DNA of 64,000 nt from Escherichia coli (GTDB lineage Bacteria > Pseudomonadota > Gammaproteobacteria > Enterobacterales > Enterobacteriaceae). The stretch is taken from the NCBI RefSeq assembly GCF_030013595.1, contig NZ_CP122768.1. One strand, given 5' to 3'. A program made the position numbers and the translations under genes. Position 1 is the first letter of the stretch. Each line of letters begins with the position of its first letter. The notes beneath the pieces are model-generated. The model had not been told where the DNA came from, did no database searches, and saw nothing but the letters and a program-made list of their open reading frames with translations. This document shows positions 7,410 through 53,426 of this stretch, in pieces.

Positions 7410-7459
7410 GCGCCCCGCTCCCCGATAAGGGAGCAGGCCAGTAAAAAGCATTACCCCGT

Positions 7460-7544
<85 letters not shown>

Positions 7545-7579
7545 TCTCAAGCATTACCTCAAAATTTGAATTACCCCGT

Positions 7580-7648
<69 letters not shown>

Positions 7649-7664
<16 letters not shown>

Positions 7665-8205
7665 TCACTTTCAAAAGTCCGTGAACTCTCAAACGAATCC
7701 GCGATTAAATATTCTGCCCATGCGGGGAAGGATGAGAAGCTTCGACCAAGGTTCGACTCGAGCGCCAGCGAGAGAGCGTGGCCGCAGGCAACGACCCGAA
7801 GGGCGAAGCGCGCAGCGCTGAGTAATCCTTCCCCCACCACCATCACTTTCAAAAGTCCCTGAACTCTCAAACGAATCCGTAATTAAATATTCTGCCCAAG
7901 CGGGGAAGGATGAGAAGCTTCGACCAAGGTTCGACTCGAGCGCCAGCGAGAGAGCGTTGCCGCAGGCAACGACCCGAAGGGCGAAGCGCGCAGCGCTGAG
8001 TAATCCTTCCCCCACCACCATCACTTTTCAAAAGTCCGTGAACTCTCAAACGAATCCGCAATTAAATATTCTGCCCATGCGGGGAAGGATGAGAAGCTTC
8101 GACCAAGGTGCGACTCGAGCGCCAGCGAGAAAGCGTTGCCGCAGGCAACGACCCGAAGGGTGAAGCGCGCAGCGCTGAGTAATCCTTCCCCCACCACCAT
8201 CACTT
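7649..8205 (+). repeat. Three and a bit tandem copies of a 178-bp repeat at the 3' end of the tyrT-tyrV operon (rtT/tpr region)
   Basis: Unit starts at 7649, 7827, 8005 and partial at 8184, each beginning with the tRNA 3'-end-like ccttcccccaccaccatcac; units differ by a few substitutions. Confidence 0.9.
7732..7821 (+). CDS. tpr: Protamine-like small protein Tpr (29 aa) encoded inside first 178-bp repeat
   Basis: ATG 7732 to TGA 7819-7821 encodes [29 protein letters not shown], Arg-rich; matches my recollection of the 29-aa Tpr; paralogous ORFs in repeats 2 and 3. Confidence 0.35.
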
Positions 8206-21544: not shown

Positions 21545-21583
21545 TGTTTGAGGGGGCGTCTGACGCCCCACTATGAGGGAAGT

Positions 21584-22282
21584 TTACTCAGGCGAATCCC
21601 GGCCGTAACACACCATCCGGATAATTCTCCGCCAGCAGTTTTTTACCGATACCAGCAAATCATTCAGCCCATCGTCCTGCATTCCCAGTTTGATAAGCTC
21701 CTGTTCCAGTGAAAACAGGTATTGTGCGTTGGTTCCCAGTGGACCGCTCGCCGCCGCAATCAACGGCGCGATGACCTGAGCGCGAGTGTCAGATTCATAT
21801 TCTGGATGTCGCGGGTCCATAATAAACACAATGGCGTTTACTGTGCGTCCATCATCAAGATCAAGCTGACACCAGGTTGGCAGATAACAGCCGGTAATCA
21901 TCTCGCGCTTCCACAACAGGGTTAGTTCCTGCTCCAGCGTCTCTTCTGGCAGTCGATAGGCGACGCCTGTGGTGCGTCCGCCCTCTTTCAGTGCAAGCAT
22001 CCGTCCCGGCTGGTGCGCAGTCCCGCGCCCGGCGGTCAGGCGCAGGCAAAACGCGCGATGCCATCCAACCAGTGTACCGGTGCACGACTCGGTAAACTCC
22101 AGTGCCGGATTCCACATCAACGATCCATAACCGAAGATCCACACCGGTCCCTCATCAGGTCGACAAGCCAGCGTCGCCGCCAGCGAAGCCGCCCGTTGCT
22201 CTGCTGACCATAAGAGTGATTCTTCAATGGCACCAAATGCCGTTTTACAATCGGCATTCATCAAGAAATCACGCGTTATCAC
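21584..22282 (-). CDS. chaC: ChaC (gamma-glutamylcyclotransferase family), with possible 3'-terminal frameshift
   Basis: GTG start at 22282 gives MITRDFLMNADCK...; YGSLMWNP motif present; the last 18 codons look out-of-frame, see findings. Confidence 0.8.
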   Translation of the reverse strand: MITRDFLMNADCKTAFGAIEESLLWSAEQRAASLAATLACRPDEGPVWIFGYGSLMWNPALEFTESCTGTLVGWHRAFCLRLTAGRGTAHQPGRMLALKEGGRTTGVAYRLPEETLEQELTLLWKREMITGCYLPTWCQLDLDDGRTVNAIVFIMDPRHPEYESDTRAQVIAPLIAAASGPLGTNAQYLFSLEQELIKLGMQDDGLNDLLVSVKNCWRRIIRMVCYGRDSPE

Positions 22283-24040: not shown

Positions 24041-24445
24041 CAGATATATCTCCTCCGATGACAGAAATCGGGGGAGATAATATAAATTCCTGCTTATTGT
24101 ATTTCTTCATACTACCTGAACAGGTTGTTAATCAGAATTGCGAGCCTGTACCAGAACCTGCACGAAACCACTGCAACAGCTGTTGAAAAGCCGGAATGTA
24201 CTCTTTATTGCAAACATTTCAGGGATGAAGTGAAGATGAATTGAGACGTAGTATCCACACCAAGCCGGCGTTATCCGGTGAGGCGCAATGTTGCGGGGGC
24301 TTTATCCCTGGTGGCATTGGTTGCTGGAAAGAGAAAACCCCCGCACGTTGAGAGGTAAAACCTGACAACAGAACGGGGGCTAATCTTGAACCATCAACAA
24401 TTCAAGAATAGCCGCAAAATGTTGTCATTACAACAAGGCGGCTAT

Positions 24446-24553
24446 ATGACGCTCGCGCAGTTTGCCATGATTTTCTGGCACGACCTGGCAGCACCGATCC
24501 TGGCGGGAATTATTACCGCAGCGATTGTCAGCTGGTGGCGTAACCGGAAGTAA
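24446..24553 (+). CDS. ldrA: Ldr-family small toxic peptide (35 aa)
   Basis: ATG to TAA encodes MTLAQFAMIFWHDLAAPILAGIITAAIVSWWRNRK, single TM helix; matches Ldr toxin family. Confidence 0.8.
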   Translation: MTLAQFAMIFWHDLAAPILAGIITAAIVSWWRNRK

Positions 24554-24602
24554 GGTGAAAACGGGCGTCAGGCTGCCGTGATGGCAATATGCGCCCGAAA
24601 CC

Positions 24603-24635
24603 GGCCGCAGGGGTAACAGCCTGCGGCCTTTTTTG
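24603..24635 (+). terminator. Rho-independent terminator of ldr transcript (copy 1)
   Basis: ggccgcagg-ggtaacag-cctgcggcc followed by T6. Confidence 0.75.
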
Positions 24636-24980
24636 TCTTTATCTCTTCCACAAGTAAATATTGGCAACCCGAGCTGGAAGCATCATCCAGAGCACTCATG
24701 AAACGACTGTAACAGCTGTTGAAAAACCGGAATGCACTCTTCATTGCATACATTTCAGGGATGAAGTGAAGATGAATTGAGTCGTAGTATCCACACCAAG
24801 CCGGCGTTATCCGGTGAGGCGCAATGTTGCGGGGGCTCTATCCCTGGTGGCATTGGTTGCTGGAAAGAGAAAACCCCCGCACGTTGAGAGGTATAACCTG
24901 ACAACAGAACGGGGGCTAATCTTGAACCAGAACAATTCAAGAATAGCCGCAAAATGTTGTCATTACAACAAGGCGGCTAT

Positions 24981-25151
24981 ATGACGCTCACGCAGTTTGC
25001 CATGACTTTCTGGCACGACCTGGCAGCACCGATCCTGGCGGGAATTATTACCGCAGCGATTGTCAGCTGGTGGCGTAACCGGAAGCAAGGTGAAAACGGG
25101 CGTCAGGCTGCCGTGATGGCAATATGCGCCCGAAACCGGCCGCAGGAGTAA
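24981..25151 (+). CDS. Ldr-family toxin variant with stop codon replaced by CAA (56 aa read-through form)
   Basis: MTLTQFAMTFWHDLAAPILAGIITAAIVSWWRNRK followed by Q (CAA at 25086-25088 where copy 1 has TAA) and 20 further codons through the terminator hairpin. Confidence 0.6.
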   Translation: MTLTQFAMTFWHDLAAPILAGIITAAIVSWWRNRKQGENGRQAAVMAICARNRPQE

Positions 25152-25170
25152 CAGCCTGCGGCCTTTTTTG
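25138..25170 (+). terminator. Rho-independent terminator of ldr transcript (copy 2)
   Basis: ggccgcagg-agtaacag-cctgcggcc followed by T6. Confidence 0.75.
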
Positions 25171-25183
25171 TATCCGGCCCCAT

Positions 25184-53401: not shown

Positions 53402-53426
53402 TTCTTTGTTAAACGGAATTTATTCT

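Follow-up and report, generated by a model that had tools for sequence, protein, structure and literature searches.

A one-base contraction of an adenine run replaces the C-terminal tail of ChaC in a clone of Escherichia coli

In this study, we found that the chaC gene in a 64-kb stretch of Escherichia coli chromosome (hereafter, the window) has six A's in a run that numbers seven in nearly all E. coli, that this deletion is inherited within the clone to which the window belongs and recurs on other backgrounds of the species, and that it lies at the downstream end of the part of the gene that encodes the conserved domain. We conclude with high confidence that this clone's chaC carries a real −1 deletion passed on by vertical descent, most likely produced by slippage, and that this deletion leaves the conserved domain untouched, replaces the tail and appears to be tolerated. 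In the course of events that we propose, replication slippage would have shortened A7 to A6 at codons 214/215, and translation then shifts to the −1 frame, in which 18 codons are read before a TAA 4 nt beyond the normal TGA. The resulting ChaC has 232 amino acids and a catalytic domain unchanged through V213/K214; the final one and a half turns of its terminal helix, together with the floppy tail at the C-terminus, become NCWRRIIRMVCYGRDSPE. The effect on fitness may be mild or neutral. Since the A6 form has arisen independently in several E. coli lineages, the slip appears to be tolerated.

The gene stands in the neighbourhood chaA / chaB-chaC / ychN / ychO of the E. coli chromosome. As read in the window, the chaC CDS occupies 21584-22282 on the minus strand, with a GTG start at 22280-22282, 232 codons and a TAA at 21584-21586, as judged from the ORF, its translation and the RefSeq-annotated orthologue of strain 042; the translated product ends in ...DLLVSVKNCWRRIIRMVCYGRDSPE. 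The A6 homopolymer, where the −1 deletion affects codons 214/215, lies at 21639-21644 on the minus strand (T6 on the plus strand) and appears as a single gap against strain 042 and as a gap against strain HCP5S3_I2. From there the window encodes, on the minus strand, the out-of-frame tail NCWRRIIRMVCYGRDSPE (18 codons, 21587-21640). Translation of the adjacent frame (21588-21641, minus strand) gives the ancestral tail KLLAENYPDGVLRPGFA followed by TGA at 21588-21590, which is read if the run is A7.

The preliminary description of this DNA had proposed a 1-bp homopolymer frameshift in chaC, and comparison with strain 042 bore this out: over 771 nt, one A missing from A7 is the sole difference between the two genes. 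On rechecking, all the positions it gave proved correct. Because the two genes differ in nothing else, the intact length of 231 amino acids that it had given and the tail that it had restored one frame over were both right; the former is the length of 042 ChaC (WP_001295621.1, 231 aa, C-terminus KKLLAENYPDGVLRPGFA), and the ancestral-frame tail is identical to the C-terminus of that protein. Its count of 18 altered residues holds for the 18 new residues that are encoded, but the wild-type residues that they replace number 17. Thus, 17 C-terminal residues of wild-type ChaC (KLLAENYPDGVLRPGFA) give way to 18 unrelated ones (NCWRRIIRMVCYGRDSPE), and the frameshift product is a glutathione-specific gamma-glutamylcyclotransferase with an altered C-terminus.

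The convergent genes chaC and ychN are separated by a GC-rich inverted repeat at 21553-21569 of the window (GGGGCGTCAGACGCCCC on the minus strand), which is probably a terminator hairpin common to both; it was not among the predictions of a simple terminator scan. Beside chaA, at 24151-25171, a unit of about 0.5 kb with Ldr-type toxin genes occurs twice in tandem, the copies being about 96% alike. This repeat is present in one to three copies depending on the strain.

What the new tail does to the protein can be approached from the conservation of the family. The PF04752 profile matches the repaired protein at residues 47-215 (model positions 1-175 of 176, E = 4.8e-57), so that the profile spans the domain and places the protein in the ChaC family, and the exact frameshifted products carry precomputed PF04752 matches. 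The product of the window has both G51-Y52-G53-S54-L55 and K125-R126-E127. The YGSL-type motif and KRE(127) are invariant in alignments of 24 and of 32 Enterobacterales orthologues, and E127 is matched in human ChaC2 by the Glu of 'DFGE'. No column after V213 is invariant in either alignment. The orthologues have Leu, Trp or Cys at position 216; the mutant has Cys, the natural residue in Shimwellia and Cronobacter. Past residue 217 the tails vary in sequence and in length, and the ChaC of Siccibacter stops 3 residues after 216. In an AlphaFold model (mean pLDDT 77.8), a helix is predicted at 204-220 and residues 223-231 have pLDDT < 50. According to the model and the alignment, the frameshift rewrites the last six helical residues and an extension that is poorly ordered and poorly conserved. 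Since the domain and the invariant residues lie upstream of the change and the tail is variable and partly disordered, the frameshift is likely near-neutral, with an uncertain effect. These comparisons and the structure prediction suggest that the lost tail is dispensable, and the A6 allele is probably near-neutral. The new tail is hydrophobic and Cys-rich, and it could destabilise ChaC.

The preliminary description had also pointed to orthologue alignment as a way to judge the two tails. No ending of the NCWRR... type was found in orthologues at the species or the genus level: the C-termini of intact orthologues are variants of ...LLAENYPDGVLRPGFA or shorter tails, and exact-product look-up found the NCWRR tail confined to E. 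coli with this same deletion.

The main alternative is that the frameshift inactivates or destabilises ChaC and makes chaC a pseudogene, its recurrence then reflecting relaxed selection or positive selection that spares glutathione. We regard this as a substantial possibility, to which we give somewhat less than an even chance. The RefSeq annotation pipeline PGAP takes this side, since it labels chaC a 'frameshifted' pseudogene in every complete A6 genome inspected, and the 1-nt gap against 042 and against HCP5S3_I2 is indeed the kind of indel by which PGAP-type frameshift pseudogenes are recognised. The change also starts inside the predicted terminal helix 204-220, and the ...PGFA ending recurs across several genera in the orthologue alignment. 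Against loss of function, the invariant residues and essentially the entire Pfam domain lie upstream of the change, and there are natural orthologues that have no such tail or have unrelated ones. Overexpression of chaC was reported to lower intracellular glutathione in E. coli in a 2026 preprint (bioRxiv 10.64898/2026.05.15.725350). The literature on the ChaC reaction, in which glutathione is converted to 5-oxoproline and Cys-Gly, concerns the wild-type enzyme.

The frequency of the allele also bears on this alternative. A 771-nt chaC query had matches in 5419 of 5426 complete genomes, and the best of these were 99.9% identical and covered 772 nt in the database record. The A6 form, as an exact 40-mer, was present in 16 of the 5426 complete genomes and A7 in about 99.7%. 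This count was made with a 40-nt query that forced the BLAST seed across the run, as the identity bands of a 95-nt query confound A7 genomes with A6 genomes that bear a substitution. Megablast queries for A7 and A8 (41 and 42 nt) gave no match and are uninformative; since thousands of genomes have A7, the empty results must come from the longer run being masked as low-complexity sequence. Exact protein look-up served to assess the A8 and A5 forms. In public data the exact A6 product was found in 103 contigs as a 239-aa call, in 53 as a 232-aa call and in 1 as a 225-aa call. The A8-form product was found in 15 contigs, all of them short (the longest 22.8 kb), and the A5-form product in 2, one of which is 5.24 Mb. 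The clone of the window is absent among the 5426 complete RefSeq genomes, and a literature search on a chaC frameshift returned no paper about this allele. The A6 form of chaC is an ordinary strain polymorphism that is already catalogued.

At least seven haplotype backgrounds, 29-103 substitutions apart over a 6-kb segment, carry A6 in clean assemblies with intact neighbouring genes. These are the window clone; DADIGI01; ABSZYW01; AAWOPS01; 04-00955 (Germany) together with VG38-53E1 (Switzerland); a W-like group made up of B-766 and EC43 by the 6-kb comparison and of W and its derivatives by other comparisons; and PRO_A-1443 (Tanzania) together with fS25a (Malawi). In the W lineage, A6 is found in two separate W assemblies and several derivatives. 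In all six non-W complete genomes with A6 (6/6), chaC is the sole pseudogene within 16 kb. As a control, T7-to-T6 contractions were counted in complete genomes at other coding runs of the window: 2 genomes had one in rssA and none in treA or narH, compared with 16 in chaC, a comparison that is only indicative because the zero of treA may partly reflect masking or flank diversity. This excess would favour loss of function, but when independent lineages are counted among the complete genomes, chaC has 3 and rssA 2, so that the excess is weak, and the zero of treA may itself be a masking artefact. Support for more than ordinary slippage at a tolerated site is weak. It is very unlikely, in our view, that the repeated change from A7 to A6 reflects selection, whether as convergent attenuation of glutathione degradation or as a functional alternative C-terminus, possibly one already produced by low-level −1 slippage on the wild-type A_AAA_AAA.

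The preliminary description had left it between a strain polymorphism and a sequencing error, and the quality of the assembly together with A6 in other assemblies of the same clone settles this toward a real polymorphism. If A6 were a homopolymer or assembly error in this genome, the strain would truly have A7 and an intact ChaC of 231 amino acids. Such errors do occur at this run: nine long-read-style single-contig assemblies also have A6, but they contain 12-56 other indels per 13 kb and many of their genes are fragmented, and because of these surrounding indels and broken genes their A6 is most likely a miscall. The A8 and A5 protein forms in public data could be read in the same way. The window, however, does not look like those assemblies. 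Against its nearest complete relative, HCP5S3_I2 (NZ_CM149870.1), it shows about 45 substitutions over 64 kb and only three 1-bp length differences, in the chaC run, in a G-run at 53776 and at position 7846; the last falls among the tyrT-rtT repeats, which align ambiguously, and the G-run lies within a gene that is broken in the window and in HCP5S3_I2 alike. The genes flanking chaC in the window are all intact.

Moreover, an identical A6 is found in at least three same-clone assemblies, which are 0-2 substitutions from the window and have intact neighbouring genes. The match listed for GCA_012098455.1, which has 16 more such places, agrees with the window at 100% of 20,699 nt; that listed for GCA_002460785.1, which has 5 more, differs by 1 substitution in 20,720 nt; and GCA_020302665.1 differs by 2 in 12,854 nt. 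A6 is present in each of the three drafts. From their contig sizes and intact genes, we infer that they are short-read assemblies. Since the same-clone drafts all have A6, independent assemblies of slightly different isolates agree. The closest relative that carries A7 is 3 substitutions from the window over 6 kb, so the change to A6 is recent and clone-specific. A recent mutation that became fixed in a clone would be expected to leave this pattern. A6 is almost certainly a real allele, and we consider a sequencing error highly improbable.

It is hardly credible that the A-run is a programmed frameshift or transcriptional slippage site with two C-terminal isoforms, or a phase-variable tract that toggles ChaC: the A_AAA_AAA of the A7 allele does have the X_XXY_YYZ register of canonical shift sites, and slipping by −1 on it would give the NCWRR... 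tail, which is constitutive in the window clone, but the predicted folding of the RNA 3′ of the run is not stronger than that of shuffled sequence (z = −0.30 and −0.21) and the Lys-Lys pair is unconserved outside Escherichia (VKRL, VKAL or VRAL in other genera), and length variants A5, A6 and A8 are all in public data, but the window clone is A6 throughout its four sequences and shows nothing that suggests switching, and the tract lies at the 3′ end of the gene (codon 214 of 231), where only a probably dispensable tail changes. In E. coli, A_AAA_AAA is reported to be far less shift-prone than A_AAA_AAG (PMC5009743). Being without a stimulatory structure and with an unconserved slippery Lys-Lys, the run does not have the make-up of a programmed −1 frameshift site, nor, with the clone uniformly A6 and the tail alone altered, that of a phase-variable contingency locus.

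The finding bears mainly on annotation: the allele should be retained as sequenced, uncorrected, and labelled as frameshifted chaC or as a 232-aa variant. The chaC run also illustrates how a true homopolymer polymorphism and a miscall differ, for the same contraction is polymorphic in clean assemblies and an artefact in noisy long-read ones. The biological stakes of chaC A6 are small.

Other differences between the window and HCP5S3_I2 were seen. A TonB-dependent receptor gene at 53406-55397 on the plus strand of the window has an in-frame stop at 53919-53921, which is due to a substitution at 53919 (T in the window, C in HCP5S3_I2). The same gene in HCP5S3_I2 has an extra G at about 53776 (G6 vs G5) and is annotated as 'frameshifted'. 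Thus, with a stop in one and an extra G in the other, two close relatives carry different inactivating lesions in the receptor gene. In the tyrT/tyrV-rtT region (about 7450-8205 of the window), overlapping BLAST segments indicate that the number of repeat units differs from that of HCP5S3_I2.

Some records that carry A6 are themselves unusual. Two RefSeq records labelled 'DH5alpha', NZ_CP026085.1 and NZ_CM135829.1, are of 4.83 Mb and both have chaC A6, and in a comparison of 2440 nt NZ_CP026085.1 did not differ from E. coli W. This suggests that both are mislabelled, as they look W-lineage rather than K-12-derived. In NZ_CP118014.1 (B-766), the segment 268-10701 contains chaA-chaB-chaC-ychN-ychO-narL twice in tandem, with A6 in both copies of chaC; the block is either a real duplication of 5.35 kb or an assembly artefact.

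Among known proteins, human ChaC2 (PDB 6K95, 6KY0 and 6KY1) has a GGCT-like core that aligns to residues 45-219 of the E. coli protein, and from these alignment limits the solved ChaC2 fold ends about where the frameshift begins. Human ChaC2 is distant (E about 1e-16) and has no counterpart of the ...NYPDGVLRPGFA extension of E. coli ChaC. Intact E. coli ChaC (WP_001295621.1, 231 aa, PF04752) and the product of the window are the same over residues 1-214, FGYGSLMWNP included, and differ in that the last 17 residues of the former are replaced by 18 unrelated ones. The closest known parallel to the allele is chaC of the E. coli W lineage (e.g. WFL_RS06715 in NC_017664.1), labelled a 'frameshifted' pseudogene, in which the same run is shortened from A7 to A6 within an identical surrounding 40-mer. 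As the contraction is the same, the tail of the W-lineage protein shifts into the same frame as that of the window. The backgrounds differ, however: W has 35 differences from the window in 2.4 kb, and the W-like B-766 and EC43 have 92-93 differences in 6 kb. This difference in haplotype background implies that the A6 of the window and that of W arose separately.
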